Shown here one piece after another: positions 9,181-59,846 of a stretch of DNA of 64,000 bases. Origin of the DNA: Clostridia bacterium (GTDB lineage: Bacteria; Bacillota; Clostridia; UMGS1883); assembly GCA_045546275.1 (NCBI GenBank), contig JAZQCM010000001.1, forward strand, positions 183,079 through 247,078, in the 5' to 3' direction. A program made the translations under genes and the position numbers. The notes below the pieces were generated by a model. It was not told the origin of the DNA. It searched no databases and saw only the letters and a list, made by a program, of their open reading frames with translations. Numbering within the stretch: the stretch's first letter is position 1; each line of letters starts with the position of its first letter.

Positions 9181-9256
9181 TGGTGACCCTACGGGGACTC
9201 GAACCCCGGTCTTCGCCGTGAGAGGGCGACGTCCTAGACCGCTAGACTATAAGGCC
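9181..9256 (-). tRNA. tRNA-Glu (anticodon CUC), 76 nt, with an encoded CCA end
   Basis: Cloverleaf folded by hand: acceptor GGCCTTA/TAGGGTC, anticodon stem TCGCC/GGCGA with loop C-U-CUC-A-C, T-arm CGGGG-TTCGAGT-CCCCG. Confidence 0.8.
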
Positions 9257-9407
9257 AAATCAAATTACTTAATTATATTAACACAAAGAAAATAATTTGT
9301 CAACATAAAACTTTTTCTGAAAATAATTTGAAATTTTTACAAATAAATGCAACTTTTTTCCACCCTGAAAAGTATTATAAATGAAAACACTCAAAGGAGA
9401 GAGAAAT

Positions 9408-23330: not shown

Positions 23331-23392
23331 AAAAGGAGAGCCAATGGCTCTCCTTTTTCATAATAAAAGCTCAGCTTAGCTGAGCTTTTATT
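23331..23392. terminator. Two back-to-back intrinsic terminators between the convergent lyase and GH genes
   Basis: AAAAGGAGAGCCAATGGCTCTCCTTTTT and AAAAGCTCAGCTTAGCTGAGCTTTTA. Confidence 0.8.
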
Positions 23393-25356
23393 TAGTAGCA
23401 TATTGAATTAATTTCAGTACCTTTTTCTTCTGTAGGGGGCAAATCGCCATTTGCAACAAGATAAACTTCTTTGTGAGTAAGCTTTGCGCTTTCAACAATT
23501 TCGGTATATTCCTTGTTGCACACATCAACAAAACCAATCTGATAGTTTTCGCCATCAAAACGACCTAAATAACCTTGGTCATTAAGGGTAAAATAGTGCG
23601 CACCTAAACAGTAAGGGTGAGACGCACAACGATGCAGGTAATAGCGGTAAGTTTTTGCTCTGTCTTCCTGTGTGGCAACACCTTGTATACCGGTAGCATC
23701 CAATCCACGGTCCAATGCACCAAAGTGGAATTCACCAATCATAACCGGCATATCAACCAAATCAACAATATGCTGAATGCTTCCATATGGGTCGTGGCGG
23801 TAACAGTTGAATGAGAATACATCGAAATATTCACAGCCACTTGTTACGGTTTTGTTTGCAACCCATGCATAGCGCATACCAAGATTAAGGTGGTTTTTGT
23901 CAACTTTCTTTAACGCAAGAGCAGGAACTTTGATAAATTCTCTGACCATTTCTGCCGAAATTGACATTAAATCATCAAGGGCTGTTTTATTCAACAAATC
24001 TTTATCGATAGGTGAGTACAAAGCGTCAAACTCTGAAAAATCCTTTTCCCATGCAGCATTGAGGTTTGTAATGCAGGAATACTTATGCTTAAGGCTATCA
24101 ATAATATAATCCTTTGAATAGAACTTAACGTCACGCTCTAAGGTAACTGCCGCAATATTAAGCCCGTCAGAAAACGCCCAGTTAGGTTCGTTGCTCATGA
24201 AATAGCCGATCATGTTCTTATCATTTTTCAGCACTTCAAGCTGTTGTGCCCATTTTTCACTTTCAACGTTGTATTCAGGTGAAAAAACATCGGGAAAATC
24301 ACGGAAAATATTTTCTGTTGTACGTGGAAAACCATGAAGAATATGTACATAGGGAAGATTGGAGTTTTTAATGAAATTCATATCGCTCCAACAAGCAACT
24401 GTGTTTACACCCCAGTCAACAAGCCTTCTTTTTGTAATCTTTGTCCAGGCTTCATACCAGTTTTCGCCAAAAGTGCGATATAAATTGTATTTATGCCACG
24501 AGAAGAAAACTTCATCGCCAAATCTTCTTTTTGACCAACCGGGAGTGTCTTTGTCGGGAAGATAGTCGCAGAACGCTTCGATACCTGTAAGGTTACAGTC
24601 TCCATCAACACCCACGCAGTCAAGACCTGCGCTGAAAAATGCATATCCGTCAGGGTCCTTTAACCAGTATCGACCGTTCGCTTTTTCCAAAGCAAAAAAG
24701 CCTGTAGGTTCAAATTTTTTGCCAAGCCAACCACCATAGGCGGAAAGTCCTGTTATTGGATTGGCTGTTTTTTCATATTCATTAAATAAATAAGCTTTAA
24801 GCTCTTCCTCGTTATTAGTTTTTCCAATCCAGTTAGTTATTTTCTTTTGTCCCAGCGTGTCAACAAGCTTAACTTCAGGAACTTCATAAAAGGGCTCCTC
24901 ATTTGCAATATATGCATCATGAATTTCAAGAGAAACATCATTGGGAGAGGGAGAAACGCCAAACGCAAAGCCTGTCAAGTTTTTTAACTTTACAGGTGTT
25001 CCCAACACAACAGTCTTTAATCTGCCAGGCTTTCTCTTCAAAAAAAGCACACCGCCTTCAGCAGATTCTTCCTTCAAAGAAACAACAGTTTTTACATGTG
25101 GTAATAAACCTATTTTTACCGTTATATCGCTGTTTTTTCTATCGCTATCCCAAAAGTTAAGCGTAACACTTGTTGAATATTCAGAAAGGTTTGTAACAAC
25201 AAACACCACATATTCTTCGCTGTTACAGGCATAGGAACAAATTGTGCCTTTTTCGCCACGAAAATACAGCATACCGCCGTTTTTCGAAAAGGTGTATACT
25301 CCATTATCAAAAGTAACATTTTTCATTTCTGCGCTGTTAAGATCAATTTTTTTCAT
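23392..25356 (-). CDS. Putative clan GH-A (TIM-barrel) glycoside hydrolase, 654 aa, no signal peptide evident
   Basis: Candidate acid/base motif NEP (FMSNEPNW) and candidate nucleophile GEFH. No family could be assigned by eye. Confidence 0.4.
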   Translation of the reverse strand: MKKIDLNSAEMKNVTFDNGVYTFSKNGGMLYFRGEKGTICSYACNSEEYVVFVVTNLSEYSTSVTLNFWDSDRKNSDITVKIGLLPHVKTVVSLKEESAEGGVLFLKRKPGRLKTVVLGTPVKLKNLTGFAFGVSPSPNDVSLEIHDAYIANEEPFYEVPEVKLVDTLGQKKITNWIGKTNNEEELKAYLFNEYEKTANPITGLSAYGGWLGKKFEPTGFFALEKANGRYWLKDPDGYAFFSAGLDCVGVDGDCNLTGIEAFCDYLPDKDTPGWSKRRFGDEVFFSWHKYNLYRTFGENWYEAWTKITKRRLVDWGVNTVACWSDMNFIKNSNLPYVHILHGFPRTTENIFRDFPDVFSPEYNVESEKWAQQLEVLKNDKNMIGYFMSNEPNWAFSDGLNIAAVTLERDVKFYSKDYIIDSLKHKYSCITNLNAAWEKDFSEFDALYSPIDKDLLNKTALDDLMSISAEMVREFIKVPALALKKVDKNHLNLGMRYAWVANKTVTSGCEYFDVFSFNCYRHDPYGSIQHIVDLVDMPVMIGEFHFGALDRGLDATGIQGVATQEDRAKTYRYYLHRCASHPYCLGAHYFTLNDQGYLGRFDGENYQIGFVDVCNKEYTEIVESAKLTHKEVYLVANGDLPPTEEKGTEINSICY

Positions 25357-47351: not shown

Positions 47352-48335
47352 ATGAACGTTAATAACGAATACCGCGATATTCCGGCGTTTGCACGGCGTT
47401 TTCTTGTGCATATGTCAACTATTCTCGGCAAATCTGATAAAACTGTACACGAATACTATTATGACCTTCGAACATTTTTCAGATTTTTAATGTGTTATTT
47501 TAACAAAGCTTCCTTTGATGATTTTGATACACTTAATGCTTCTGATTTTTCTATTAAAGACCTGGATAAATTAGTTACAGATGATTTGTATGAATACCTT
47601 ATGTTTATCAGAAATACACGTGATAATAATCCAAATGCTTTAGCACGTAAAATTTCTTGTCTTAAATCGTTTTATAATTATATGACTACAAAATCACATC
47701 AGCTTGATAATAATATTGCTAAAGATCTCGAATCTCCCAAAATTCCCAAAAAACTTCCCAGGTATCTTACATTAGACCAATCACGAAAACTTTTGGAATC
47801 TGTTGATGGCGAATTTGCAGTTCGTGACTATGCAATTATAACATTGTTTTTAAACTGTGGTATGCGTCTTAGTGAGCTTGTTGGTATAAATATGCATGAC
47901 ATGCAAGAAAATAGTATATTTATACGTGGCAAGGGCAACAAAGAACGAAAAGTTTATCTTAATGAGGCTTGTATTGCCGCAATTAATGATTATCTTGCAA
48001 TAAGGCCTCACGACGGGGTTATTGACCGTGACGCTCTGTTCTTAAGCAAAAGAAAAACTCGTATTTCTAACAATATGGTCTATAGAATGGTAAAAAAGAA
48101 CATGGAACGAGCAGGTTTAGACCCGGATAAATATTCACCGCATAAGCTCCGTCATACTGCCGCAACATTAATGTATGTGCATGGCGATGTTGATGTAAGA
48201 GCTCTGCAAGAAATACTCGGTCACGAACAGCTCTCTACCACTCAGATTTATACACACGTTGATGAAAAACAATTGCACGAAGCAGTAAGTCGCAATCCTT
48301 TGGCAAACACAAAAAAGCAAAAAAAAGACAGCTGA
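47352..48335 (+). CDS. Tyrosine site-specific recombinase, XerC/XerD family
   Basis: Catalytic R..HxxR..Y region LRHTAATLMYVHG...LGHEQLSTTQIYTHV. RBS GGAGG before the ATG at 47352. Confidence 0.8.
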   Translation: MNVNNEYRDIPAFARRFLVHMSTILGKSDKTVHEYYYDLRTFFRFLMCYFNKASFDDFDTLNASDFSIKDLDKLVTDDLYEYLMFIRNTRDNNPNALARKISCLKSFYNYMTTKSHQLDNNIAKDLESPKIPKKLPRYLTLDQSRKLLESVDGEFAVRDYAIITLFLNCGMRLSELVGINMHDMQENSIFIRGKGNKERKVYLNEACIAAINDYLAIRPHDGVIDRDALFLSKRKTRISNNMVYRMVKKNMERAGLDPDKYSPHKLRHTAATLMYVHGDVDVRALQEILGHEQLSTTQIYTHVDEKQLHEAVSRNPLANTKKQKKDS

Positions 48336-48349
48336 TGCTGTCTTTTTTT
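48323..48349. terminator. Bidirectional terminator between xerC-like and the ECF operon
   Basis: AAAAAAGACAGCTGATGCTGTCTTTTTTT. Confidence 0.8.
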
Positions 48350-49068
48350 CATTTGAAAACTCCGTATTTTTGCTTAATTCTCTTTAGTTTCTTTCCTATA
48401 GGTTTATTCATAATAATCATAAAAATTACGTTTGATATTACATAACTGAGCATAACGGGAACACTTGCCACAACAAGAGAAATATACCTTTGAAATGTAA
48501 ATAAAGAATCAAGATTAATTGTTGTGTAAATATCCATTACTAAAGAAAAAACCACACCTGCAATTGCTGAAAATGAATATAACAAAACCTTGTTCTTTTC
48601 AAGTAAACTCCTTTTGTTCAGAACACCTGCAATAAAACCAATCAGCCCCCACACAGCCATCTGGAAAATTGTCCATGGACCTTGACCGTATTGCATGTTT
48701 GAAAAAAGTGCGGTAAACGAGCCTGTAATAAATCCTGCATCACAGCCTAAATACATGCCTGTTATTATAACAAGTGCCGTTACAGGTTTAAAATGCGGAA
48801 CAAAAATGAAAATTATCCGAGAAGCTGTGCATAATGCAGTCATTACTGCTATTATGACAATTTCTCTTGAGCTTTGTTTACTTCGCTCAAATTTGCTGAA
48901 AAAAGGTATTAAAACTATTATTGCCGAAATCATTGCAACCAGCATGTATTTTTCATTGCCTAAAAATAAGCTCGAAGTAATTGAAAGAATTATTAAACAA
49001 AATATAGCAAAAATGCTTTTATACTTACTGATATGTACCATTCCTTTTACATAGAGTTGAAATATCAT
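48349..49068 (-). CDS. ECF transporter substrate-specific (S) component, predicted corrinoid-specific (CbrT-like) from operon context
   Basis: Small multi-TM protein that terminates the ECF T-A-S operon. The start is uncertain: candidates are 49068, 49041 and 48945, which give 239, 230 or 198 aa. Confidence 0.55.
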   Translation of the reverse strand: MIFQLYVKGMVHISKYKSIFAIFCLIILSITSSLFLGNEKYMLVAMISAIIVLIPFFSKFERSKQSSREIVIIAVMTALCTASRIIFIFVPHFKPVTALVIITGMYLGCDAGFITGSFTALFSNMQYGQGPWTIFQMAVWGLIGFIAGVLNKRSLLEKNKVLLYSFSAIAGVVFSLVMDIYTTINLDSLFTFQRYISLVVASVPVMLSYVISNVIFMIIMNKPIGKKLKRIKQKYGVFK

Positions 49069-50575
49069 CAATGGTTACTGTGTTTTCAAAAAATCCTTTT
49101 GAAACAATCGATGCAGTTGTTGTGTAAAACTTGTTTTTAGAGAAAACCTGGCGTGGTGTGCCTTCCGAAACGATTTGACCATCATACAAAAAAACACACC
49201 TGTCAGAAAATTCTGCGGAAAACTCCGCATCATGAGTAACTGCAATTATACACATTCCTTTTTCCTTCAACCGCTTTAACAGCTCCCCTACTTCCCTTTT
49301 CCCCTTTGCATCTATCCCCTTTGTTGGTTCATCAAGGCAAAGAATTTCAGGGTTTGTAAGCAGGATTTTTGCAAGAGCTGCCTTTTGTGCCTCTCCTCCG
49401 CTTAAATCAAAGGGATTTCTGTTTAATAGATGAGTAATTTTAAGCTCATCTGCAATTTCCATATAATCATTTGAAACAAGGCTTAAATCATCTTTCAATA
49501 CATCTTTTGTGAAAACTGTTTTGACATTCTGCGGCAAAAGCACTATTTTTGATGTATAATTATGCACTTTCCCCGAATATGGCTTCAAAATATTGTTTAT
49601 AACCCCCATAAAGGAAGTTTTTCCTGCACCATTTCCACCAAGAACAACAGCAATTTCGCCTTTATATGCAGTAAAATTCAATTTTTTCAACACATCGGAA
49701 TCGTTTTTGCCATAACGGAAATAAATATCCTTGGCTCGCAAGGCTTTTTCACCAAATTGAACGCTTTCTTCAATGGAGTTTATATCATTCTTGTAGTTTT
49801 TTCTCAAAAAGCTTCTGCAATCACTAACTGATGCAGGCACATCATTTAAGGATATACCCAGCGCCTTCAGCAACCTTACGGCAAAGGGATATTCAACAGC
49901 ATCGGTATCGAGATTATTAAATACTTCTAAACCTTTTCCTTGGGCAATCAACTTTCCATTTTCCATAACACAAATTTTTGTGGCAAAATTAATTAATTCT
50001 TCAGATTTATGCTCGGAAATGATAATTGTAATCCCCATTTCACTATTAAGCCTTTTTATCATATCAATAAAATTTCTTGCAGCAATTGGGTCAAGCTGAC
50101 TTACCGGTTCATCCAAAAGTAAAATATCCACATCGGATGCCATCACAGACGCAAGAGTTACAAGCTGCTTTTCACCACCTGAAAGTTGGGTGGTTTTTTT
50201 GTGAAAAAGGTGTGTAATGTCAAAAAACTCAGCAGTTTCGGCAACCTTTTGTCTTATTTCATACTTAGGTAACCCCTCGTTTTCAAGAGCGAAGGCAATA
50301 TTGTGCCAAACAGTATCGGAAACAATCTGTGTTTCCACATCCTGTGTTACAATACCGGTTTTTATGCCTCTTTTAATAACTATTTCTCCATTTTTTTCAC
50401 CAAAAGGAGAAATAGCTTCGTTCAAAAGTTTTATTAAAGTTGTTTTTCCGCTGCCGGAAGAGCCTGTTAACAAGATAAAATCTCCTTGATTAACGCTTAA
50501 AGAAAAGTTGTCTAACGCATAGCTTTCCTGCCCGGGATATTTAAAACTTAAATTTTCGATATTAAGTATTTCCAC
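49025..50575 (-). CDS. ECF transporter fused duplicated ATPase (EcfA1-EcfA2)
   Basis: Two ABC cassettes (GSSGSGKTT / GGNGAGKTS; LSGGEKQ / LSGGEAQ). GTG start with a strong AAGGAGGGG RBS. Confidence 0.85.
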   Translation of the reverse strand: MEILNIENLSFKYPGQESYALDNFSLSVNQGDFILLTGSSGSGKTTLIKLLNEAISPFGEKNGEIVIKRGIKTGIVTQDVETQIVSDTVWHNIAFALENEGLPKYEIRQKVAETAEFFDITHLFHKKTTQLSGGEKQLVTLASVMASDVDILLLDEPVSQLDPIAARNFIDMIKRLNSEMGITIIISEHKSEELINFATKICVMENGKLIAQGKGLEVFNNLDTDAVEYPFAVRLLKALGISLNDVPASVSDCRSFLRKNYKNDINSIEESVQFGEKALRAKDIYFRYGKNDSDVLKKLNFTAYKGEIAVVLGGNGAGKTSFMGVINNILKPYSGKVHNYTSKIVLLPQNVKTVFTKDVLKDDLSLVSNDYMEIADELKITHLLNRNPFDLSGGEAQKAALAKILLTNPEILCLDEPTKGIDAKGKREVGELLKRLKEKGMCIIAVTHDAEFSAEFSDRCVFLYDGQIVSEGTPRQVFSKNKFYTTTASIVSKGFFENTVTIDDISTLCKRNGTYQ

Positions 50576-51405
50576 TTTATCCCCTCCTTAAGCTCGTTCA
50601 GACAAGGCAAAAACGATAGAATTGCAACAGACAAATATAACAAATATCCATTATTCTCAAATTTAATTGACGGATAATAGAAAAATTTACCCTGAGAATT
50701 TAAAAGACAAACTATAATAATTGCATCTAAAGCACATACCAAATGAGAAAACAACACATCGTGCTTTGAGTATAAAACATCACTATAGTCGGAGTGCTTT
50801 GCGTTTTCAAAGCCACGGGACCGCATAACATCTGCGGTGTCTATGGCGTTTTCTATTGATAATGAAATCAGCGACGAAAAAGAATTTGTCGCAAGGTTAA
50901 GCTTTCCTTTAATAGTTTTTGTATCAAATACTCCTAAAGCTTTTTGTGTGTTCATTATAGTTTTAGCATTTTCGGTTACAAGTGGAATGAACCTTAATAT
51001 CATAATAAAAACAACGCTTAATTTAGGTGATAGTTTTCCAAGTATGTATGTGAGCTTGTCCTCGGTGAAAACATAGGAAAAAAGCTTAAACCAGAACACA
51101 ACGCCAACAATTAAAAGTGCTGTAGCAAAGCCATAAAAGAGCGCTTCAAAGGTTATACGTTGGTCAAACAAATAGAAAAGCACAGTTTCTCCGTTGTGAG
51201 AAAATATGGGATTAGACAAAGTTATAATGAAAAACAAGGGTAAATACAACTTAATTCCAAGCTTTTTTGTAAAAACCCCCACCGTTATAATACCTCCCAA
51301 AAACAAAACCAGAAGTACTACCGGATTCATTGTAATCAGCGATAAAATAACAATTGATGCAAAGAATATTAATAATGTGATCGGATGAAAATCCTTAAAT
51401 TGCAT
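50548..51405 (-). CDS. ECF transporter transmembrane (T) component EcfT
   Basis: 285 aa polytopic protein with an EcfT-like Arg-rich coupling region. Overlaps ecfA by 28 nt. Confidence 0.8.
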   Translation of the reverse strand: MQFKDFHPITLLIFFASIVILSLITMNPVVLLVLFLGGIITVGVFTKKLGIKLYLPLFFIITLSNPIFSHNGETVLFYLFDQRITFEALFYGFATALLIVGVVFWFKLFSYVFTEDKLTYILGKLSPKLSVVFIMILRFIPLVTENAKTIMNTQKALGVFDTKTIKGKLNLATNSFSSLISLSIENAIDTADVMRSRGFENAKHSDYSDVLYSKHDVLFSHLVCALDAIIIVCLLNSQGKFFYYPSIKFENNGYLLYLSVAILSFLPCLNELKEGIKWKYLISKI

Positions 51406-51407
51406 TA

Positions 51408-51893
51408 TTATCCCCCATTTTTGTAACTTTCACCAATATCTTTTCCCAAATTACAGGTGTACACCCATTCTATTACATCTCCATCATGAAGAACATATTC
51501 ACTGCAGCCTTTGGCAGCAAATTGCCCATTTACAGTGTACATCCAACCCGACAATTCTCCGCAGGAAAATTCATAAACATAATTAATTCCTTCAACATAG
51601 CAGTCATGAAGAGATTGTGTGTATTCAAGTTGTATATTATTCTCTTTTGCCACAGCTTTAAGAGCATCCAACACACTTGAGCCTTTAGATACATTAATTA
51701 TAGTTTTTTGCAAAATTGAACCATTTTCAGGTATGTATTCAGTGTTTTTAAGTGCTTCATCAAGCTTTAAATAGTTTTCAAAAACTGTAGCACAATTAAT
51801 AGATACCGATACACTGATAAGCTCCGCGTCCTTTTGATTACAACCAGAAATAATAACAATTAATACTAAAAATAATACTAATACTTTCCTCAT
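51408..51893 (-). CDS. DUF4430-domain lipoprotein (transcobalamin/intrinsic-factor beta-domain-like)
   Basis: Lipobox LIVIISGCN. C-terminal motif SGWMYTVNG...GDVIEWVY is shared with two other ORFs in the operon. Its ATG overlaps the upstream stop (ATGA). Confidence 0.6.
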   Translation of the reverse strand: MRKVLVLFLVLIVIISGCNQKDAELISVSVSINCATVFENYLKLDEALKNTEYIPENGSILQKTIINVSKGSSVLDALKAVAKENNIQLEYTQSLHDCYVEGINYVYEFSCGELSGWMYTVNGQFAAKGCSEYVLHDGDVIEWVYTCNLGKDIGESYKNGG

Positions 51894-53143
51894 ATTCGTC
51901 TCCTGATTATTATAACAGAAAATATTACAATTGCAACAAAAATCCCCGGAATTGTCCACATATTGAATAATGGTTTGTTGTTTGTTCCAACTTCGTTAAT
52001 CTCGGTCGTTGGTGCTTCTGTTGGTATGTTTTCTTCAATAGTTTCAACAATATTATCGGTAGTTGCTGAAACTTCAACTGTGGGCTCAACAGACAATTTG
52101 ACTTCTGTATATTCATTTATGGGCTCATTAAATAATTCAACTTCTGTCTGGGACACAGCAAAAAACTCGGTAGGTATTTCAATTTCCATCTGAACCGTTT
52201 CAAGCTTTAAAAAAGTCTCTTCCTCTGTTGCAGGCTCGGTTTCGCTTTCAACGTTTTTCGCCATAGCATTTGCTGAATACACAGGCCCGTTCTTATCAAT
52301 GGCCGACAACGCACAAACAGCTTGATATGTTGCCATTACGTCAGTTTCTCCACCTGCAACATGTGAAAACCCATCAGCTGTTTTAAATTGCAATAAGGCG
52401 TTGTGTAAATCTATAAATTCACCATAAAACCTATTTTGAAAAGCTTTCAAGGCAATTATAACCTGTGCTGTACTTTCGGCGTTAGGCACCCCTTTTTCCG
52501 AAAAAGTACCATCTTTGTTCTGAGTGCTTTGCAAGTAATTCATGGCACGCACAACTGTATTGTTGACATTAACATCATCCATATAAAAGGATAAAGCGTA
52601 AAGAACCATGGCTGTGATGTCACAGCTCGACTCATCATCAGAAAGAGAAAAGCCGCCATCTTCATTCTGTTTTGAAAGTATTTCCCTAAGAATTGCGTCC
52701 TCTGTATTAATACCATTTCTGACTTTTTCAAAATTGCCTGAATTTAATGCAATTAACGCCCATATGTAACCATTTAGACCTTGTTTTCCAAGGTTTTCTC
52801 TGAAATACACACCGTCATTTAAAAGATTAATCCCAAAGAAGTTTGTTGCATCGTAACCAAGAAGGTTTAGTGCAATTATTAAGCGGTGCCATTCGGTGGA
52901 TTTGTTTGCACTGAGCTTGCTTTTAGTTAAATACTTGCTTTGTACATATTCATTCAATCCTGTTATATATACGTCCTCATCAAAATCAACTCCCGAAACA
53001 GTCAGTGCAATTGCAGACCAATCTGAATGTGTACTTCCGGGCGAAGACATAAGAACATTTTCTAAAACAGATTCATTTCCCAAAACCACCGTAGAATTTG
53101 AAAGGATACTAAAAACCAATAAAACTATAGCAATCTTTTTCAT
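51890..53143 (-). CDS. Secreted, C-terminally TM-anchored prenyltransferase / squalene-cyclase-like alpha/alpha-toroid repeat protein
   Basis: Signal peptide; repeated motifs QNEDGGFS and QNKDGTF with aromatic spacing, typical of terpenoid-cyclase/prenyltransferase repeats. Glu/Thr-rich linker and a C-terminal TM with RRRI. Confidence 0.55.
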   Translation of the reverse strand: MKKIAIVLLVFSILSNSTVVLGNESVLENVLMSSPGSTHSDWSAIALTVSGVDFDEDVYITGLNEYVQSKYLTKSKLSANKSTEWHRLIIALNLLGYDATNFFGINLLNDGVYFRENLGKQGLNGYIWALIALNSGNFEKVRNGINTEDAILREILSKQNEDGGFSLSDDESSCDITAMVLYALSFYMDDVNVNNTVVRAMNYLQSTQNKDGTFSEKGVPNAESTAQVIIALKAFQNRFYGEFIDLHNALLQFKTADGFSHVAGGETDVMATYQAVCALSAIDKNGPVYSANAMAKNVESETEPATEEETFLKLETVQMEIEIPTEFFAVSQTEVELFNEPINEYTEVKLSVEPTVEVSATTDNIVETIEENIPTEAPTTEINEVGTNNKPLFNMWTIPGIFVAIVIFSVIIIRRRI

Positions 53144-53697
53144 AATAACAAATCTTCCCCATAATTAAGCGTAAATATAAGTTCAATTTTGTCCCCGGGT
53201 TTAGGAATATAATCACACATACCAACAGATGGCAATTCATCATTCACTGTGAATACCCATCCTGATGTATCCGTAAAGTCAAATTCCCCAAGGGTTCCTT
53301 CAATACTTACGCTGTCAGTATATTCAATATTGTTTTCAGATAAATATGCTTTTGCTTCATCGGAAATAAAGGCGTTGGAAGTGTCGATTTCTTCAACTGC
53401 TGAAAGATAAAACCATTCTTCTGTTGTCCCTGAATAAATGGGAACAAAACCGCTTTCTTCGAGAATACTTATAAAAATTTCAGCACAGTTTTGTCCAACA
53501 AAGACAACCTCTGTTAAAGGGACTATTTCTTCTATTGAAACATTCGGTGCTTCTACAGCACAGTAAATATAGTCTTCAATTGGTTCATCATAGTCGTTGA
53601 TATACTCACTGTCTGTAATTTCATACTGCTGAACAATACCTTCAGTAACGCTTGTTAAAGCAATTATGGCAGCGGTTAAAACAGTAAAAATCTTCAT
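53140..53697 (-). CDS. Secreted DUF4430-like protein
   Basis: Signal peptide. C-terminal SGWVFTVNDE...GDKIELIF matches the shared DUF4430-like motif. Confidence 0.5.
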   Translation of the reverse strand: MKIFTVLTAAIIALTSVTEGIVQQYEITDSEYINDYDEPIEDYIYCAVEAPNVSIEEIVPLTEVVFVGQNCAEIFISILEESGFVPIYSGTTEEWFYLSAVEEIDTSNAFISDEAKAYLSENNIEYTDSVSIEGTLGEFDFTDTSGWVFTVNDELPSVGMCDYIPKPGDKIELIFTLNYGEDLLL

Positions 53698-55854
53698 TTA
53701 CTTCACCTCCGTAATCGGAACAAGGCCCTCGTTCCAGACAAACACTTTAATGTTGCCATCCATACCTGAAATGTCCACATTTTCAACATAACAGCCATTA
53801 TCCTTTTCTATTTTCCTTACAATCGTATCTGTTACCATGGAATCATTATAATTAGCAATTATTACATATGCATCACATTTAAGATTTGCATTGATTTTCA
53901 CAAAAACTTCAGATTGTTCAACAGAAATACCTGCTACATTAATTTCCAGCCATGGTGCAATTAAGGGGGAGCCACCCTCCCTTTCCGATGCTGAAATTAC
54001 ATATTTTCCCGGCATATCAAAAGATAATGTAACAACTCCCTGATCATCAGTAGTCTCGATTGTTTCCATTTCACCCGTTTTGGGGTCAACAACAGTAATA
54101 TCCGCATTTGAAATATTCATCATCATATTCTCAAGCTTCGAATCTTCGTAACAGCTGTACCAACCAAAAGGATAACCCTTAAGAGTAAGTGTAAATTCTT
54201 CGCTTTTATTAACATCTATATTTTCACAAGCTTTACCCTGATTTTCAAAATGAACATAGTTGTCTAATGCCCAGTCGTCACGGTAAAAGAAAAACTCAAC
54301 CTTGTCCCCTTCTTTAACAGGAGATTGATTTAAAGAATAACCCGTATAGCCGTAATCAGTCAAAACATCGTCGTGAGGAGCCTTGCCGTTTACAGCAAAG
54401 CCAAAGTTATATGTATCAATACAAAGAACTCTTGATAAATAGCCCTCTTGAGAAACAGAAAGATAATCATTACAGGTTTCTTGCGTAAAATCTTCACCGA
54501 ATGTATCTTCATGAATTTTTACAAGCACGTCAAGAGCAGATGCAGAATCTGTTACAGTGTCTGTATAACCATAGCTTTCAGCCTTATCGGCAAACACTTT
54601 CACATCAGTTAAAGGAACAATAAATCCATCCTCAATTAAAGCAGTACGGACTTTTGTTCTGCTGTCTTTTAACGCAAAAAGATACCCTGAGTCATTTTTG
54701 TAATATAAAGTACCATTTTCATCAGCAATTATGTCTGAAATACAATATTGTGAGTATCCGTCAGCATTATAAATTTCATCGACTATACAATCGTCAACAC
54801 TATCAGCATCAGGTTTGATTTTAATAAGTATAATGCCACCCGGTGTTGAGTTGTATGTGGTGTAAAGATAAATATATCCTTCATCAGCAATGTGAGTTGT
54901 CGATAACAGCACAGTGCATTGGGGATATGCTTTTACAGGAACTGAAAAAAGTTTTGTAAGGCTGTTTGCATCAAACACAGAAATTGTTTTGTTTGCCGTT
55001 CCTATATAAATTCTTCCATTGTAAATTACAGGCGTAGATGTGGATGCTGCGCCAATTTCACCGTATTTAACATCGGACAGTATATTTTTGTCTAATTTAG
55101 CTGAAACAAGGTAACCACCTTTTGTTGTAGCGTAAATTCTGCCTTCGTAATATGTAACAGTTGAACGGATGTCACCTTTGTTTTCAACATCAATGCTGCT
55201 TATAATTTCACCGCTTGTTTTATCGCAGGAATAAATATGAGCAATTTTATCTGTGCCATCATCCGTTGCAAAAATAACAGAATCGTCGGTAGTGTATGCA
55301 CCAACCCAGTACAAGCCGCCATCTATATTTTTACGCCATTTAACCTCTCCTGTTTCACTGTCTAATGCAACAAATGCCGCTTCTTTCTTTTCCCCGTTCC
55401 AGAATCCGGTAAACACCAAGTTTTCGGAGTATGTAACAGGCGACATTCCTTTTCCTCCCGAAATATCTTCAAACACCCATTCTGATTCAAATGTTTCAGC
55501 ATTAAAAGCCTGAACTGTTCCATTTGACAAATTCATGAAAATTTTACCATTAGCAAAAGTCGGTGCAACATAGCCATAGCTTTGCTGCTCTGCCATTGAA
55601 ATTTTTGTAATTATACTTCCGTCTTCAACATTAACTGCAAAAAGCTCGTCACCTGACATGATAACAATTTTATCTTCAACAATCACAGGTACTCCGGCAG
55701 GTTTTTGCCAGCCTTCGCCAATTTTTGTTGCCCATTTAAGGGTTAAGGTGTCGCCGGTGTCAGTATCTGTAACCGTACCAAAAACTGTTATACTGCTTGT
55801 AATAACCAGTATAAAAACCAAAATTACTGTAAAAAAATTTGAGTATGCCTTCAT
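53698..55854 (-). CDS. Secreted PQQ-like beta-propeller repeat protein with an embedded DUF4430-like module and a C-terminal beta-rich region
   Basis: Signal peptide. Recurrent propeller-blade patterns (LFAVNVEDGS, FVALDSETGEVKW, IYATTKGGYL, IYIGTANKTISVFDANS). A mid-region module ..GYSLNQSPVKEGDKVEFFFY.. is DUF4430-like. RBS GGAGG. Confidence 0.55.
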   Translation of the reverse strand: MKAYSNFFTVILVFILVITSSITVFGTVTDTDTGDTLTLKWATKIGEGWQKPAGVPVIVEDKIVIMSGDELFAVNVEDGSIITKISMAEQQSYGYVAPTFANGKIFMNLSNGTVQAFNAETFESEWVFEDISGGKGMSPVTYSENLVFTGFWNGEKKEAAFVALDSETGEVKWRKNIDGGLYWVGAYTTDDSVIFATDDGTDKIAHIYSCDKTSGEIISSIDVENKGDIRSTVTYYEGRIYATTKGGYLVSAKLDKNILSDVKYGEIGAASTSTPVIYNGRIYIGTANKTISVFDANSLTKLFSVPVKAYPQCTVLLSTTHIADEGYIYLYTTYNSTPGGIILIKIKPDADSVDDCIVDEIYNADGYSQYCISDIIADENGTLYYKNDSGYLFALKDSRTKVRTALIEDGFIVPLTDVKVFADKAESYGYTDTVTDSASALDVLVKIHEDTFGEDFTQETCNDYLSVSQEGYLSRVLCIDTYNFGFAVNGKAPHDDVLTDYGYTGYSLNQSPVKEGDKVEFFFYRDDWALDNYVHFENQGKACENIDVNKSEEFTLTLKGYPFGWYSCYEDSKLENMMMNISNADITVVDPKTGEMETIETTDDQGVVTLSFDMPGKYVISASEREGGSPLIAPWLEINVAGISVEQSEVFVKINANLKCDAYVIIANYNDSMVTDTIVRKIEKDNGCYVENVDISGMDGNIKVFVWNEGLVPITEVK

Positions 55855-55964
55855 TCTAATAACCTCCGTTTGTTTTTTTACAGAATAATGGCATACTCAA
55901 ACAAGGCTTCTTACGAAACCTTAAAAGCGTACAATCCAGTATCCTGTGGATTTATAGTACAAAG

Positions 55965-56122
55965 AAGTGGCAGGTCTTCCGACTCAGTTTCAACGCTTTC
56001 CTCGTCTTCCCGGTTACCCAGTGACATTTTAAGAAAAGCTCCGCATCACGGCAGCAAGGTCTGTCTGGGATTTTCACCCAGTTCCCTATTATGCGTATCT
56101 GCAAAATGCAATACGCCACCTA
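55965..56122 (-). ncRNA. Cobalamin (AdoCbl/B12) riboswitch
   Basis: The minus-strand RNA reads ..AGGUGGC..AAUAGGGAACUGGGUGAAAAUCCCAG..GCUGCCGUGAUG..GUCACUGGG..GGGAAGACG..AGUCGGAAGACCUGCC (B12 box). A ~110-nt expression platform precedes the first ORF, and the segment GCCUUGUUUG can pair with the SD region CAAACGGAGG. Confidence 0.85.
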
Positions 56123-56146
56123 CATCTTTATATTATTCAATTTTAA

Positions 56147-56593
56147 TTATTCAAAACTCATCTGCGAAAAATCACATATGTAAATCCAGCTTATTAAATC
56201 TCCTTCGGAAACAGTATAATCTGTCATAATAGCTTCGTTATTGACTTCATATACCCATCCGCTCATTTCACCGCAGGATTTTTCATAAATGTAATTAATT
56301 CCCTTAGCGTAGCCCGAATCTGCATCAATCTGAATGTCATATTCTTTAGCTACTTTCTTTAAAACATCAAGGGCGCTGTCGCCTTCATTAGCCTCAACTT
56401 CAACAGTTTTAAGTATAAGACCATCTTTGGGCACATACTTTTCATCACGAAGGCTTTCGTCAAGCATTTCGTAATTTGAAAGAATGTCGCTACAGTCAAT
56501 CTCAACTTTAACGTTTACCACATCTTTCTTTGCACAGCCTGCAGTTACAAGCAATACTAAAATGAGTAAAAGTGTTTTGATTAAACTTTTCAT
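56147..56593 (-). CDS. DUF4430-domain lipoprotein (fourth paralogue)
   Basis: Lipobox LVTAGCAK. Motif CGEMSGWVYEVNNE...GDLISWIY. Confidence 0.6.
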   Translation of the reverse strand: MKSLIKTLLLILVLLVTAGCAKKDVVNVKVEIDCSDILSNYEMLDESLRDEKYVPKDGLILKTVEVEANEGDSALDVLKKVAKEYDIQIDADSGYAKGINYIYEKSCGEMSGWVYEVNNEAIMTDYTVSEGDLISWIYICDFSQMSFE

Positions 56594-57434: not shown

Positions 57435-59846
57435 TTATTTTTGAATGAAATAATACCAGTTGCCTCTAATTGCAGTAAGCTCTTTGTTCTTTGCGATTTT
57501 TTCAGGCGCATAAACAATTCCAAATTCTTTTCCTTCATCGGTTTTTCCAAACACAAATGAAACTGTATCCTCCGCATTTGGATTGTATTTTACAGAAAAT
57601 GCAACAAACTGTTCGGACAACTCGCCTATAAGTTCTATAGCATTGTCGGAAAGCTTAATGAAGCTACCCAACTTATAATCGCGGATTTCAAGACCATTAC
57701 CAACTTTGTTGATATAAGCACCATTATTGCAGTTTTTGTTGAGATATGTTACCACCGCCGAAAGTATGCTTTCGTGAGACAGTAAGAAATCCCCTGCTGT
57801 TTTTTCAGAAAAATCACCGGTGAAGCCATTTTCAGGGCGAGAAATCGAGTCAAAGTCAATATCATCGCTTTCCACAATATCATTGTGCTTAATTTCAGCG
57901 TCAGGACTGTACATCCATTTAATTGTTTTAATAACAAGCGCTGCAGCTTCTGCAACAGTTATGCTGTCGGTAGGATTAAGATACCCGTTAAAGCCCGCAA
58001 TAATACCTGTTGAGCACATTGTGTCAACATAGTCTTTTGCCCAGAAAGAAACATTATCACTATCCTTAAAGCTGATAGAAACATCGCCCTTTTCAGCATT
58101 TGAAATTCTTGCAAGAATGATTATAGCCTCTTCTCTGCTTATAAGGTCCTCGGCATGAACCTGACCTTTTTCATCGCCTGTCATGTAGCCTATTTGCTGG
58201 GCAGTAATACAGTCTTCATAAAAATCACTATTTTCATCCAAATCAGAAAATTTAGACTTCCCCGAAACGGAAAAACCTAACAATCTGTTAATTAATGCTG
58301 CAAAATCGCCTCGCGAAATGTGGCTGTCAGCTTCAATTGGCTTTCCTGAAGGAGATTGTCCAAAGGAATTGACCGTGTCACAGAACATTTTACCCCAGTA
58401 AGAATCGTCATAGCCTGCAATAAATTCGCCGTAATTTACAAGCTTAAGCTCAGTTTTTTCACTTTTAAGTAAAACTTCGCCATCTGTATCAATTGCAAAA
58501 AACTCAATTGAAGGCTTTTCACATGATAAAAGTTCTTCTGTAATATCAATAGTTGCTGAAAACTCAAACTGAGCAGTACCCGCTTTATTCTCACGAACAA
58601 GATTAGCCGTTGTATTATCTTCAAAAACAACTTCGCCATCTTTATCTGACACAACCATTCTGATTTCTGTAACCATATTATTAAATTCGTATGTAGCACC
58701 AGAAAGGGATGCTTTGTAATTTACAGGAGAATACACGCCATAAAATGTTCCACTATCCCCCACGGTAAGATTTACGCCATCAGAAAGATTAAAATCAATA
58801 AAGCGAACCTCGCCATCTTTATTTGTGTTTTCAACACGAGAAAGAGCAATAAATTGATTATATTTGCTTTCAACAACTTTCCCTTTCTTTTCAAGGTTAG
58901 CATCCGCAAATCTAAAAGGAACAGCTTCTTCACCTATGTCATAATACAAATAATTAACCTTGTTAGGGACACTCTTACTGAAAATGCTTCCAAGCTTTAC
59001 ATTATCAGAAGCTCTTGAAGTATCAAGATAGTTAAGGAGTATGTAAACATCCTTATCCCCCGAAAGTTCAACCTTTATGTTATCTGCAAACCTCTGATTA
59101 ACAGAGTATGAAAAGTCCTTTGTAACATTATTTAAAAAGCTCGAAGGATTCCAGTAGCCTACAATAGAATTGGGTAAAACAAGGTCGTTTTCTTTGGTAT
59201 ATTCAGCCAAATTAACGTTGTCTGTTGCAATCAGACGTTTATTGTTGTTTCCAATGTTAATAGTTTTAACAGTTTTAAAAACCTCTTCACCATACAAATC
59301 AAGGGCAGTTACTATAAGCTCATATTCACCACTTATTAAATCTGGAAGAGATTTTTCGTATTTATCAACCAAATTAAGGTCAAAATCCTTTGTGGCACCG
59401 CCAAAAATAATTGCCGCAAAATAGTCTTCTTTAACAACAATTTTGTTATAAGCTAAACGAATTGAATCACGGTCATTGCCGTCATACAAAATATCGGGGG
59501 GCGTTAATGTGTTTAACAAAACATTCTTTGCATCGTTTACTGCAGTGCCATTTTCATAGTCCAAAAGAAAATATGAGCCCGGTGTTACACCATCAGGTCC
59601 TACATTACTTTCAAGAAGCCTCACAGCCTCTCCCATTGAGTTGTTGAGTCTTATTCTTAGGTTTAAAGGCTGCTCCTTTGCGGTTGCTCCATTTCGATCA
59701 ATTTTTCCGATTACGTAAAAATCTCTCAACGGCATAATTTCAGTTTCTGTTGGTGCAACAACTGTAACTTCCGCAGCACTCGCACTGATGAAAAGCAACG
59801 AAAGAACTATAATTGACACCGTAAACAATAAAAGAACTTTTTTCAT
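57435..59846 (-). CDS. Large secreted S-layer-homology (3x SLH) domain protein with a ~470-aa N-terminal region of unknown function
   Basis: Signal peptide. Three ~55-aa SLH repeats in the C-terminal half (..ISRGDFAALINRLLGF.., ..ISREEAIIILARI.., ..ITVAEAAALVIKT..). Confidence 0.7.
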   Translation of the reverse strand: MKKVLLLFTVSIIVLSLLFISASAAEVTVVAPTETEIMPLRDFYVIGKIDRNGATAKEQPLNLRIRLNNSMGEAVRLLESNVGPDGVTPGSYFLLDYENGTAVNDAKNVLLNTLTPPDILYDGNDRDSIRLAYNKIVVKEDYFAAIIFGGATKDFDLNLVDKYEKSLPDLISGEYELIVTALDLYGEEVFKTVKTINIGNNNKRLIATDNVNLAEYTKENDLVLPNSIVGYWNPSSFLNNVTKDFSYSVNQRFADNIKVELSGDKDVYILLNYLDTSRASDNVKLGSIFSKSVPNKVNYLYYDIGEEAVPFRFADANLEKKGKVVESKYNQFIALSRVENTNKDGEVRFIDFNLSDGVNLTVGDSGTFYGVYSPVNYKASLSGATYEFNNMVTEIRMVVSDKDGEVVFEDNTTANLVRENKAGTAQFEFSATIDITEELLSCEKPSIEFFAIDTDGEVLLKSEKTELKLVNYGEFIAGYDDSYWGKMFCDTVNSFGQSPSGKPIEADSHISRGDFAALINRLLGFSVSGKSKFSDLDENSDFYEDCITAQQIGYMTGDEKGQVHAEDLISREEAIIILARISNAEKGDVSISFKDSDNVSFWAKDYVDTMCSTGIIAGFNGYLNPTDSITVAEAAALVIKTIKWMYSPDAEIKHNDIVESDDIDFDSISRPENGFTGDFSEKTAGDFLLSHESILSAVVTYLNKNCNNGAYINKVGNGLEIRDYKLGSFIKLSDNAIELIGELSEQFVAFSVKYNPNAEDTVSFVFGKTDEGKEFGIVYAPEKIAKNKELTAIRGNWYYFIQK

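Follow-up and report, generated by a model that had tools for sequence, protein, structure and literature searches.

Knowledge of corrinoid acquisition by Gram-positive gut anaerobes lags far behind that of Btu and BtuG in Gram-negative bacteria (PMC6977713, PMC6593275). Gram-positive operons specifying transcobalamin-like SLBB proteins were predicted in a purely computational study by Burroughs, Balaji, Iyer and Aravind in 2007 (Biol Direct 2:4, PMC1796856). The passages of that paper on these operons describe secreted or anchored SLBB proteins fused to, or encoded beside, alpha/alpha toroids or, in a protein of Clostridium, a beta-propeller; the operons also contain a second, paralogous SLBB gene and genes for a CbiO-like ATPase and a CbiQ-like membrane protein, and a role in cell-surface B12 scavenging is proposed. 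Experiments by Santos et al. (2018, eLife, PMC5997447; PDB 6FNP) showed that ECF-CbrT imports cobalamin and cobinamide. ECF transporters are thought to have no need of an extracytoplasmic binding protein, the S component being the high-affinity binder (PMC5997447). Lastly, as described in the relevant parts of a preprint by Verplaetse et al. (2019, bioRxiv 10.1101/864751), deletion of lsa1836-1840 in L. sakei impaired heme accumulation, which complementation restored.

The stretch of DNA analysed here (64 kb, hereafter the window) contains seven co-directional minus-strand ORFs, the first starting at 55854 and the last ending at 48349, behind a cobalamin riboswitch. All the accessory elements fit the operon class as set out in those passages of PMC1796856, and the operon is a further member of that class, not a new kind of system. 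Its presentation as a candidate new system in the preliminary description thus has to be withdrawn, since such operons had been predicted there and ECF-CbrT import had been shown in PMC5997447. The host is an uncultured, Oscillospiraceae-like member of the Clostridia. The features, in 5' to 3' order along the minus strand, are:

56147–56593, minus strand: upstream gene for a 148-aa DUF4430/SLBB lipoprotein, lipobox VTAGC (Pfam DUF4430, 37.3 bits)
56140–56168, minus strand: promoter-like site TTCGCA-17-TAAAAT (weak, 9/12 consensus match)
55952–56139, minus strand: cobalamin riboswitch aptamer (RF00174), full length, B12 box present (100.7 bits, E 5.4e-24)
55855–55951, minus strand: leader / expression platform, between the aptamer and gene 1
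53698–55854, minus strand: gene 1, 718-aa propeller protein (Pfam PQQ_2, 64 bits)
53140–53697, minus strand: gene 2, 185-aa secreted DUF4430/SLBB protein (Pfam DUF4430, 40.9 bits)
51890–53143, minus strand: gene 3, 417-aa toroid protein (Prenyltrans 39.4 bits, SQHop_cyclase_C 28.3 bits)
51408–51893, minus strand: gene 4, 161-aa DUF4430/SLBB lipoprotein (Pfam DUF4430, 70.4 bits)
50548–51405, minus strand: gene 5, 285-aa EcfT (CbiQ family) transmembrane coupling subunit (Pfam CbiQ, 44.5 bits)
49025–50575, minus strand: gene 6, 516-aa fused EcfA-EcfA' ATPase (Pfam ABC_tran, two domains, 161 bits)
48349–49071, minus strand: gene 7, CbrT-like S component (Pfam ECF-ribofla_trS, 41.9 bits)
48318–48351, minus strand: intrinsic-terminator-like hairpin (15 bp) with T-run at the operon end (sequence scan)

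The operon probably specifies a B12-repressed system for the capture and import of corrinoids by this uncultured Clostridia bacterium. Corrinoid capture and uptake is the best reading because a CbrT-type transporter, a riboswitch, transcobalamin-like accessory proteins and conservation of the arrangement all point to it.

The tight packing and 4-nt overlaps noted at the outset are borne out by the ORF coordinates and junctions. Genes 1 and 2 abut, and genes 2/3 and 3/4 share 4 nt (ATGA), the latter presupposing that gene 4 starts at the lipoprotein ATG at 51893, which overlaps the stop codon of gene 3; genes 4 and 5 are separated by 2 nt, while genes 5/6 and 6/7 overlap. The hairpin at the operon end is common to a convergent integrase gene. 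All four accessory proteins possess a signal peptide or a lipobox, the toroid having a C-terminal TM helix as well. Screening of the operon proteins against Pfam, as had been proposed, returned PQQ_2, DUF4430 (twice), Prenyltrans, CbiQ, ABC_tran and ECF-ribofla_trS. Peripla_BP_2 was absent from all ten proteins scanned, in agreement with the earlier statement that none of the four extracytoplasmic proteins is a BtuF-type binding protein. BtuFCD is likewise a B12-riboswitch-controlled, ATP-driven corrinoid importer with an extracytoplasmic binder, but it is a type II ABC importer, whereas the window specifies an ECF transporter and no BtuF-type (Peripla_BP_2) protein.

The riboswitch had been recognized by its B12 box, GAGTCGGAAGACCTGCC, and its GGGAAC..GGTGAAAATCC core, both of which were found in the window sequence. 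The RF00174 match spans model positions 1–189 and lies far above the gathering score of 31.5, and the identification stands. The aptamer model ends 97 nt before the gene 1 ATG, which corrects the distance of 113 nt given previously. Comparable aptamers precede the orthologous operons at related loci, scoring 103–108 bits in L001, L003 and L004 (RF00174) and 150–179 bits in L011–L016 (model R1). The leader carries a conserved TCCACAGGA..TGGA element, a hairpin at 55922–55903 (AAGGTTTC-GTAA-GAAGCCTT) followed by GTTTGAGTATG, and an RBS (GGAGG) at 55867–55863. Among orthologues the hairpin sequence varies with its pairing kept (covarying), and the GTTTGAGTATG after it is conserved. A clear hairpin with a T-run lies ahead of the RBS in the leaders of L001 and L004; a scan of the window leader found no intrinsic terminator, and in its MFE fold just 3 nt of the RBS are paired. 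Since the leader does not have the clear terminator of L001 and L004, the aptamer score conveys more certainty about regulation in the window than is warranted. The promoter-like site lies within the 3' end of the upstream gene and stops 1 nt short of the aptamer match; L001 has an 11/12 promoter-like site at the equivalent position.

The claim of an ECF-CbrT-type module was upheld by the CbiQ and ABC_tran matches and by the S component. The latter gave a single significant match in the PDB, 6fnp_A, the S component of ECF-CbrT (E 3.6e-10, residues 68–237); the next S component, 4hzu_S, had an E-value of 0.52. Gene 7 is therefore a homolog of the CbrT family, distinct from other S-component families. 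That it binds and transports cobalamin or cobinamide with high affinity is suggested by its context, namely the riboswitch. It codes for 240 residues when read from a TTG, though translation may in fact begin at the ATG at 49041, for a protein of about 230 residues. The product of gene 6 scores 309.8 bits with ECF_ATPase_1 and 289.5 bits with ECF_ATPase_2 (NCBIfam), slightly under the single-domain equivalog cut-offs. With EcfT, two ATPase domains and the S component in adjacent overlapping genes, this is a dedicated, or group I, ECF transporter, and the evidence supports one of the ECF-CbrT type behind a genuine cobalamin riboswitch. The ECF-CbrT of L. delbrueckii has a homologous S component (over about 170 residues) and, like that of the window, EcfT and two ATPase domains. 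The L. delbrueckii CbrT, however, is a group II protein specified in an nrdJ-cbrS-cbrT-pduO cluster and shares a general ECF module encoded elsewhere (PMC5997447), whereas the module in the window is dedicated, has fused ATPases and follows four genes for extracytoplasmic accessory proteins.

Two of the accessory proteins, gp2 and gp4, exceed the Pfam threshold for DUF4430 (PF14478; 23.8 bits), as does the upstream 148-aa lipoprotein. Gp2 possesses a signal peptide, a lipobox being absent, and matched the lipoprotein-type DUF4430 alignment at 98.5% using hhalign; the lipobox of gp4 is MRKVLVLFLVLIVIISGC. A third DUF4430 domain within the operon had been placed in gp1. Its middle domain has no Pfam DUF4430 match even at E<=10, but it aligned with the operon's DUF4430 alignments by hhalign at 92–93% (E 2.5e-7 to 6e-7); a control domain reached 0.1%. 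The claim that three operon proteins share this domain accordingly holds through Pfam for genes 2 and 4, and for gene 1 it has the support of profile alignment. PF14478 is seen by Pfam in more distant propeller homologs (P0025, P0064 and P0067). With a profile of the DUF4430 domains, the transcobalamin beta-domain 5no0_A was the second PDB match, at an E-value (0.47) that is not significant alone; its alignment runs across the SGW and GD.IE motifs.

Gp3 consists of a signal peptide, an alpha/alpha toroid (residues ~30–300), a disordered linker (~300–392) and a C-terminal TM helix (397–416). Its Pfam scores (thresholds 26.5 bits for Prenyltrans and 26.1 bits for SQHop_cyclase_C) place it among the class II terpene cyclases and prenyltransferase beta subunits. 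The alpha/alpha toroid is also the fold of the transcobalamin alpha-domain; structurally gp3 matches class II terpene cyclases and transcobalamin about equally, and in sequence it is closer to the former. A 51-sequence toroid profile matched drimenyl diphosphate synthase (E 2e-17) and gave no match to transcobalamin, intrinsic factor or haptocorrin at E<=10, nor did Pfam return Cobalamin_bind at E<=0.01. In three close homologs (P0136, P0123 and P0128), which are 45–51% identical to the toroid and 59% identical to the lipoprotein domain, toroid, TM, TM and DUF4430 follow one another in one chain; this fusion (Rosetta-stone) evidence would bring the two ectodomains next to each other at the membrane. 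The signal peptide and C-terminal TM anchor suggest that the toroid lies outside the cell, which argues against an enzymatic role. Together these data support an extracytoplasmic location of the accessory proteins and their membership of the transcobalamin-like DUF4430/SLBB family, with an alpha/alpha toroid accompanying them.

Neither half is significantly matched in sequence by mammalian transcobalamin, intrinsic factor or haptocorrin. In transcobalamin a single soluble chain comprises the toroid and the beta domain, which sandwich cobalamin, whereas the window specifies two separate membrane-anchored chains; where homologs of these are joined, a TM hairpin takes the place of the soluble linker of transcobalamin. 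The window likewise differs from the operons of PMC1796856 in that its toroid and SLBB proteins are separate, individually anchored chains and the SLBB-like domain of its propeller protein is divergent and invisible to Pfam. The passages of that paper that were searched contain no mention of riboswitches or of a CbrT S component, both of which are present in the window.

Gp1 begins with a signal or anchor helix, followed by an eight-bladed BamB-like beta-propeller (residues ~37–397), the divergent SLBB/DUF4430-like domain (~400–525) and two beta-sandwich domains (~532–718), with a weak CarboxypepD_reg match in its C-terminal part. The AF2 model (pLDDT 87.3) shows an alpha/beta domain at ~400–525. 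Using Foldseek, the propeller matched BamB with an E-value of 3.5e-20 and a target-normalised TM-score of 0.77. The top 50 matches included BamB, YxaL, tetrathionate hydrolase, Fbw7 and similar proteins; BtuG was not found among them. Bacteroides BtuG, a beta-propeller at the cell surface whose gene accompanies that of a B12 transporter, is a possible analogue of the window propeller, in function only, as a device for extracellular capture (PMC6977713). BtuG is a lipoprotein of the outer membrane, where its partner is a TonB-dependent transporter, while the window propeller, from a Gram-positive bacterium, is BamB/YxaL-like, has eight blades and an SLBB-like domain fused to it, and shares its operon with an ECF importer. 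The preliminary contrast of this system with BtuG/BtuH as built from different folds can be kept insofar as the two propellers resemble different proteins; it fails insofar as BtuG is a surface beta-propeller too.

BamB-like propellers, the top Foldseek matches, are typically protein-interaction scaffolds, and BtuG takes B12 off intrinsic factor (PMC6977713). Both facts would suit a rather unlikely division of labour in which the ECF transporter imports corrinoids and the accessory proteins, instead of relaying corrinoid passively, strip B12 from the carrier proteins of host or competitors, discriminate among or remodel cobamides, or hold a corrinoid store at the surface, with the propeller as a partner-binding or piracy module. 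A single capture step would not need as many as four SLBB-type domains, which fall into two or three divergent subtypes, and a further paralogue upstream; the related loci derive mostly from gut and rumen MAGs. The sequences do not tell piracy or remodelling from simple capture, however, and enzymatic domains were not detected in the accessory proteins by the Pfam and NCBIfam scans. Propeller paralogues also occur behind riboswitches when alone (L007) or with a MacB-type ABC system (L009). We tentatively suggest, while regarding it as somewhat doubtful, that the propeller family, riboswitch-regulated even alone, binds or pirates corrinoids as a Gram-positive analogue of BtuG while a split, membrane-tethered transcobalamin (toroid and SLBB) feeds the ECF S component. 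If true, many gut and rumen Clostridia would possess an uncharacterised B12-capture apparatus at their surface, which would provide the first demonstration of an ECF transporter relying on extracytoplasmic binding proteins and would be a present-day relative of the bacterial ancestor proposed for animal transcobalamin.

The riboswitch and the seven-gene order recur in L001–L005, L011–L013 and L016, with protein identities of 45–64%, so the arrangement in the window is not due to chance. A search of gene neighbourhoods in other Clostridia, recommended in the preliminary description, found DUF4430 and ECF genes behind B12 riboswitches to be widely recurrent. Among 80 species-level Clostridia loci carrying the propeller family, DUF4430 neighbours were present at 69, the full EcfT/EcfAA/CbrT-like set at 44 and the toroid at 24; a same-strand upstream cobalamin riboswitch was found at at least 44, in 13 of these within 700 nt of the propeller gene. 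Dozens of Clostridia species share the gene set and its riboswitch, and the window operon shows both in clean and complete form.

This recurrence bears on the proposal that the accessory genes are unrelated surface proteins (a BamB-like scaffold, a terpene-cyclase-like enzyme and beta-grasp wall proteins) or that the system is a cobalt transporter like CbiMNQO. It draws on the labels given by Pfam and NCBIfam to gene 3 (prenyltransferase / squalene cyclase-like) and gene 5 (CbiQ, 'cobalt transport protein') and on the good scores of several cobalt ATPase models with gene 6. We consider it most improbable: across Clostridia families, propeller, toroid and DUF4430 genes are found together with ECF-CbrT and the riboswitch in numerous gene orders, toroid and DUF4430 are fused in homologs, and the toroid is extracytoplasmic, where isoprenoid diphosphate substrates would not be expected. 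In addition, CbiM and CbiN are absent and the S component is CbrT-like.

The homologous L. sakei cluster Lsa1836-1840, compared here through its published description, specifies an ECF transporter and, as separate proteins like those of the window, a toroid resembling the alpha half and an SLBB protein resembling the beta half of transcobalamin. On the strength of its mutant phenotypes it was assigned to heme, and the shared accessory-protein architecture would allow heme or another tetrapyrrole, not corrinoids, to be the cargo in the window as well. This is very unlikely, given the high-scoring cobalamin riboswitch ahead of the window operon and of at least 44 of the 80 related loci, and CbrT, a cobalamin transporter, as the sole significant solved relative of the S component; heme-related genes or regulators were not found adjoining the operon. 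The passages on the L. sakei cluster mention no propeller, extra SLBB proteins or B12 riboswitch, whereas the window has all three. The clash between the two assignments is worth settling.

From these comparisons we infer a scheme for corrinoid capture and import. At high intracellular cobalamin the aptamer would bind it and the leader would shut the operon off, in the orthologues putatively through transcription termination. When B12 is scarce the four extracytoplasmic proteins would be made. The TM-tethered toroid and the DUF4430/SLBB lipoprotein may form a split, membrane-tethered counterpart of transcobalamin, with the corrinoid sandwiched between the toroid face and the beta-grasp domain, and the secreted SLBB protein and the protein with propeller, SLBB-like and two Ig-like domains could extend capture outward through the wall. 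Bound corrinoid would then be handed to the CbrT-like S component, and the dedicated ECF module of group I (EcfT and the fused EcfA-A' ATPase) would import it at the expense of ATP. Such a relay would be unusual, because high-affinity binding in ECF transporters falls to the S component (PMC5997447). The literature yielded no report on corrinoid binding by accessory proteins of such operons. If they do bind corrinoids, a large share of the unexplained B12 uptake capacity of Firmicutes would be accounted for, the idea that ECF transporters can do without binders outside the cytoplasm would be challenged, and the bacterial origin that PMC1796856 proposes for transcobalamin and intrinsic factor would become accessible to experiment.

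The upstream 148-aa lipoprotein gene lies just 5' of the riboswitch, with a 1-nt overlap with a yihY/BrkB gene, and fell outside the operon as originally delimited; in the window genome it is not under the riboswitch. It is absent at the L004 locus, while its position is kept in L011, L012 and L014, and in L011 it has a cobalamin riboswitch of its own (6880–7068).

In the window, cmscan located a single cobalamin riboswitch (RF00174), which lies on the minus strand ahead of seven ORFs running from 55854 down to 48349. Its score is to be compared with a gathering score of 31.5 for the family, and the sequence contains a B12 box as well as the GGGAAC..GGTGAAAATCC core, in agreement with the preliminary description. 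The distance of 113 nt to the ATG given there needs correction, since 97 nt separate the end of the aptamer model from the start codon. The signals of the operon, together with the terminators of L001 and L004, two related loci from other genomes, are:

55952-56139, minus strand: cobalamin riboswitch RF00174, 100.7 bits, E 5.4e-24, complete model covered
Ending 1 nt before the aptamer, inside the gene upstream at its 3' end, minus strand: weak promoter-like site (9/12 consensus)
55922-55903, minus strand: covarying leader hairpin, its tail one T below the terminator rule of the scan
48351-48318, minus strand: 15-bp hairpin and T-run ending the operon
L001 3480-3503: terminator hairpin and T-run before the RBS
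L004 9951-9982: terminator hairpin and T-run before the RBS

The window has an intact aptamer and a less clearly defined expression platform. In L001 and L004 an obvious hairpin and T-run directly precede the RBS; a terminator of this type is absent from the leaders of the window (55855-55951, minus strand) and of its closest relatives, L011-L014. A TCCACAGG..TGGA element is common to all leaders compared, as is a hairpin that varies in sequence with its pairing kept and is followed by TTTGAGTATG. In the window and its closest relatives just the covarying hairpin followed by GTTTGAGTATG remains, and the leader's minimum free energy fold makes hardly any contact with the RBS. Within a single orthologous group the expression platform thus seems to have been altered. 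Judging from other uptake operons, B12 likely represses the operon. L001 also contains a second, weak RF00174 match (35-174; 33.3 bits, just over threshold), upstream of a Macro-domain gene and 3 kb before the main riboswitch.

The seven genes are tightly packed and co-directional, as had been claimed. Genes 1 and 2 abut, ATGA overlaps join genes 2/3 and 3/4 (gene 4 being started from its lipoprotein ATG at 51893), a gap of 2 nt separates genes 4 and 5, and there are further overlaps at 5/6 and 6/7. The products, assigned using Pfam and NCBIfam and all encoded on the minus strand, are:

Gene 1, 718 aa: PQQ_2 / BamB-like propeller
Gene 2, 185 aa: DUF4430, 40.9 bits
Gene 3, 417 aa: Prenyltrans / SQHop_cyclase alpha/alpha toroid
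Gene 4, 161 aa: DUF4430, 70.4 bits; lipobox ISGC
Gene 5, 285 aa: CbiQ / EcfT
Gene 6, 516 aa: two ABC_tran domains, best models ECF_ATPase_1 and ECF_ATPase_2
Gene 7, 240 aa: ECF S component

The Pfam scores confirm the DUF4430 domains (PF14478, transcobalamin-like SLBB clade) proposed for genes 2 and 4, and a BtuF-type domain was absent from every protein in the Pfam search, again as proposed. The sole significant solved relative of gene 7 is 6FNP chain A (E 3.6e-10 over approximately 170 residues), the CbrT subunit of the ECF-CbrT cobalamin transporter of L. delbrueckii (PMC5997447); the next-best S component in the PDB search reached an E-value of only 0.52. CbrT was predicted in 2009 (as cited in PMC5997447), and its import of cobalamin and cobinamide was shown in 2018 (PMC5997447). 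This relationship, together with the cobalamin riboswitch, speaks against heme transport by the operon, the role assigned to the homologous L. sakei cluster, where the transcobalamin alpha- and beta-like proteins encoded alongside an ECF transporter are described as a capture device (bioRxiv 10.1101/864751). Two further readings, cobalt transport or unrelated passenger genes, are opposed by the lack of CbiM and CbiN, for which a CbiMNQO cobalt transporter was set aside, and by the conservation and gene fusions described below.

A DUF4430 domain had also been claimed for the 718 aa protein. Pfam did not detect it in the excised middle domain of gene 1, even at E<=10, and hhalign was therefore used with a profile built on residues 398-535 of 23 orthologues. 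Against the operon's own DUF4430 alignments this profile gave a probability of 92–93% (E 2.5e-7 to 6e-7), versus 0.1% for the C-terminal domain of gene 1 as a control. The AF2 model of gene 1 (pLDDT 87.3) consists of an N-terminal helix, an eight-bladed propeller (~37-397), an alpha/beta domain (~400-525) and a pair of beta-sandwich domains. Structurally it is closest to BamB (Foldseek E 3.5e-20, target-normalised TM-score 0.77) and to YxaL; BtuG was absent from the top 50 Foldseek matches.

When the PDB was searched with a profile made from 19 diverse DUF4430 domains of these loci, the second match was the isolated transcobalamin beta-domain (5no0_A), with an E-value of only 0.47 and an alignment crossing the conserved SGW and GD.IE motifs; it agrees with the published homology and is not independent proof of it. 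A single-sequence search of the PDB with the DUF4430 lipoprotein gave only Argonaute PAZ matches (E ~0.05), which were judged spurious.

The AF2 model of gene 3 (pLDDT >90 at residues 30-300) comprises a signal peptide and the alpha/alpha toroid, then ~90 residues of disordered linker and, at the C-terminus, a TM helix. The structural ranking of the toroid placed it beside terpene cyclases and all three mammalian B12 carriers:

Rank 1: drimenyl diphosphate synthase, 20.3
Rank 2: a squalene-hopene cyclase, 20.1
Rank 3: bovine transcobalamin, 19.1
Rank 8: intrinsic factor, 18.6
Rank 10: haptocorrin, 18.5

Bovine transcobalamin aligned over 256 residues, the most among the top matches, and Foldseek gave the same picture. 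The modelled fold is therefore compatible with the role of a transcobalamin alpha-domain, and is not proof of it. At the sequence level a single-sequence PDB search with the toroid returned weak terpene cyclase matches only, and its profile did not reach transcobalamin. A role as an enzymatic terpene cyclase was set aside on the basis of the extracytoplasmic topology. In the toroid (51890-53143, minus strand) the polar residues W42, R87, Q121, N124, D175, E223, H261 and Q274 are invariant across the 51 homologues of the alignment, and are candidates for a ligand-binding face.

Stronger evidence than fold similarity comes from gene fusion. Among the closest toroid homologues (45–51% identity) are proteins of 540–560 aa, including P0136, P0123 and P0128, in which the toroid is followed by a linker, a TM helix, a second TM helix and a DUF4430 domain 59% identical to that of gene 4. 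In those species a single TM hairpin carries both ectodomains, as one would expect of halves cooperating on the outer face of the membrane.

We propose that at low B12 the operon is transcribed and translated, and that the anchored toroid and the SLBB lipoprotein would pair as a split transcobalamin, sandwiching the corrinoid between them. Ligand may also be bound by the secreted SLBB protein and by the propeller-SLBB-Ig protein, both of which would carry capture outward from the membrane, and the corrinoid would then be handed to CbrT and imported by the dedicated ECF module. The analysis demonstrates the RNA element, the domain identities, the topology signals, the homology to CbrT, the similarity of folds, the fusions and the conserved association with riboswitches; ligand binding by each accessory protein, the toroid-SLBB pairing, the transfer to CbrT and the sign of regulation are inferred from these. 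The accessory proteins might have a more active part, either in piracy from carrier proteins or in cobamide selectivity.

The preliminary observation is confirmed; its interpretation is right as to function, corrinoid uptake, and wrong as to novelty. In the account of Burroughs et al. 2007 (PMC1796856), who defined the SLBB superfamily, Gram-positive transcobalamin-like SLBB proteins have signal peptides and are fused on either side to an alpha/alpha toroid or, in a Clostridium protein, to a beta-propeller. Such genes are there described as often sharing an operon with CbiO/CbiQ genes and a second SLBB paralogue, in bacteria without B12 synthesis, and it was proposed that the surface complexes scavenge B12 and that animals acquired transcobalamin from such bacteria. 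The operon is of this known, computationally predicted kind, and its architecture would not surprise a B12 specialist. What is added is a complete, riboswitch-headed example, a count of the propeller family's presence in the cobalamin regulon, the TM-hairpin fusion of toroid and SLBB, and the structural placement of the toroid. No paper in the literature searched describes an experiment on whether these bacterial proteins bind corrinoids. The system is widespread and easy to test; an ECF transporter needing extracytoplasmic binders, or corrinoid binding by a BamB-like propeller, would if true be a real advance.

The full architecture (riboswitch, propeller-SLBB, DUF4430, toroid, DUF4430, EcfT, EcfAA, CbrT-like) recurs in the same order at 45–64% identity in L001-L005, L011-L013 and L016, and also in the incomplete loci L014 and L015. 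L004 is syntenic with the window both upstream (spore germination genes, araA, SLH protein, yihY) and downstream (integrase, Met_gamma_lyase-family gene, oxaloacetate-decarboxylase genes). One genome per GTDB species was then scanned with the propeller alignment, the best identity to the 718 aa protein being 63%, so that the source species is missing from the GTDB representatives. The 80 loci kept span Oscillospiraceae, Lachnospiraceae, Acutalibacteraceae and Christensenellales, and include Eubacterium barkeri, E. aggregans, Acetitomaculum ruminis, Syntrophaceticus schinkii and Flavonifractor porci. Only features encoded on the propeller gene's strand were counted, using HMMs from the window operon and a covariance model from five aptamers; the counts are lower bounds because contig ends truncate many loci and the home-made models do not match curated ones in sensitivity:

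DUF4430 gene beside the propeller gene: at least 69 of 80 loci
At least a partial ECF module: at least 57 of 80
EcfT, EcfAA and CbrT-like S component: at least 44 of 80
Toroid gene: at least 24 of 80
Cobalamin riboswitch upstream of the propeller gene, within 6 kb: at least 44 of 80
Cobalamin riboswitch no more than 700 nt from the propeller gene: at least 13 of 80

Gene order differs widely among the loci, which argues that the linkage is functional rather than accidental; a chance operon was set aside on these conservation statistics.

Several variants were found. L007 has a lone propeller paralogue behind RF00174 (94 bits), and in L006 (RF00174, 41.8 bits) a propeller paralogue fused to choline-binding repeats precedes DUF4430 and ECF genes. 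L009 (2200-13723) is a non-ECF variant in which RF00174 (104 bits) precedes a DUF4430 gene, an ABC ATPase, a 587 aa protein, a MacB/FtsX-type permease, a 956 aa DUF4430 and dockerin protein and a 1240 aa propeller protein. The window operon has one EcfT only, whereas a second EcfT-like gene directly follows the S component (EcfT-EcfAA-CbrT-EcfT) in L018, L020, L023, L025, L028, L029, L031, L032, L035, L037, L047, L054, L056 and L057. Two or three cobalamin riboswitch matches lie within 0.5–1.7 kb upstream of propeller genes in L086 (1942-3614), L047 (6284-6820), L078 (2018-2633) and L018 (2717-3869); they may be tandem riboswitches, or else mark several short genes under regulation.

Other surface protein genes in the window are:

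56147-56593, minus strand: fifth DUF4430 lipoprotein gene, directly upstream of the riboswitch, with a 1-nt overlap with yihY/BrkB
57435-59846, minus strand: 803 aa SLH-domain surface protein, upstream of yihY
9381-11468, plus strand: SLH, VWA and YfbK_C protein

Lying upstream of the riboswitch, the fifth DUF4430 gene is outside its control in this genome. L011, L012 and L014 also have this gene, and L004 lacks it; the copy in L011 (6880-7611) has a cobalamin riboswitch of its own, giving two riboswitches ~560 nt apart. The 803 aa SLH protein, also upstream of the riboswitch, keeps its position in L004, L011 and L012. With two SLH-domain surface proteins, the organism probably has an S-layer.

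A 654 aa ORF (23392-25356, minus strand) adjoining a Mur ligase gene had no Pfam match at E<=1e-5. The 1840 aa product of 17804-23326 (plus strand), with CBM96, heparinase II/III N- and C-terminal and Laminin_G_3 domains, resembles a large secreted protein of the polysaccharide lyase type. One tRNA gene (63.4 bits) lies at 9184-9256 on the minus strand.
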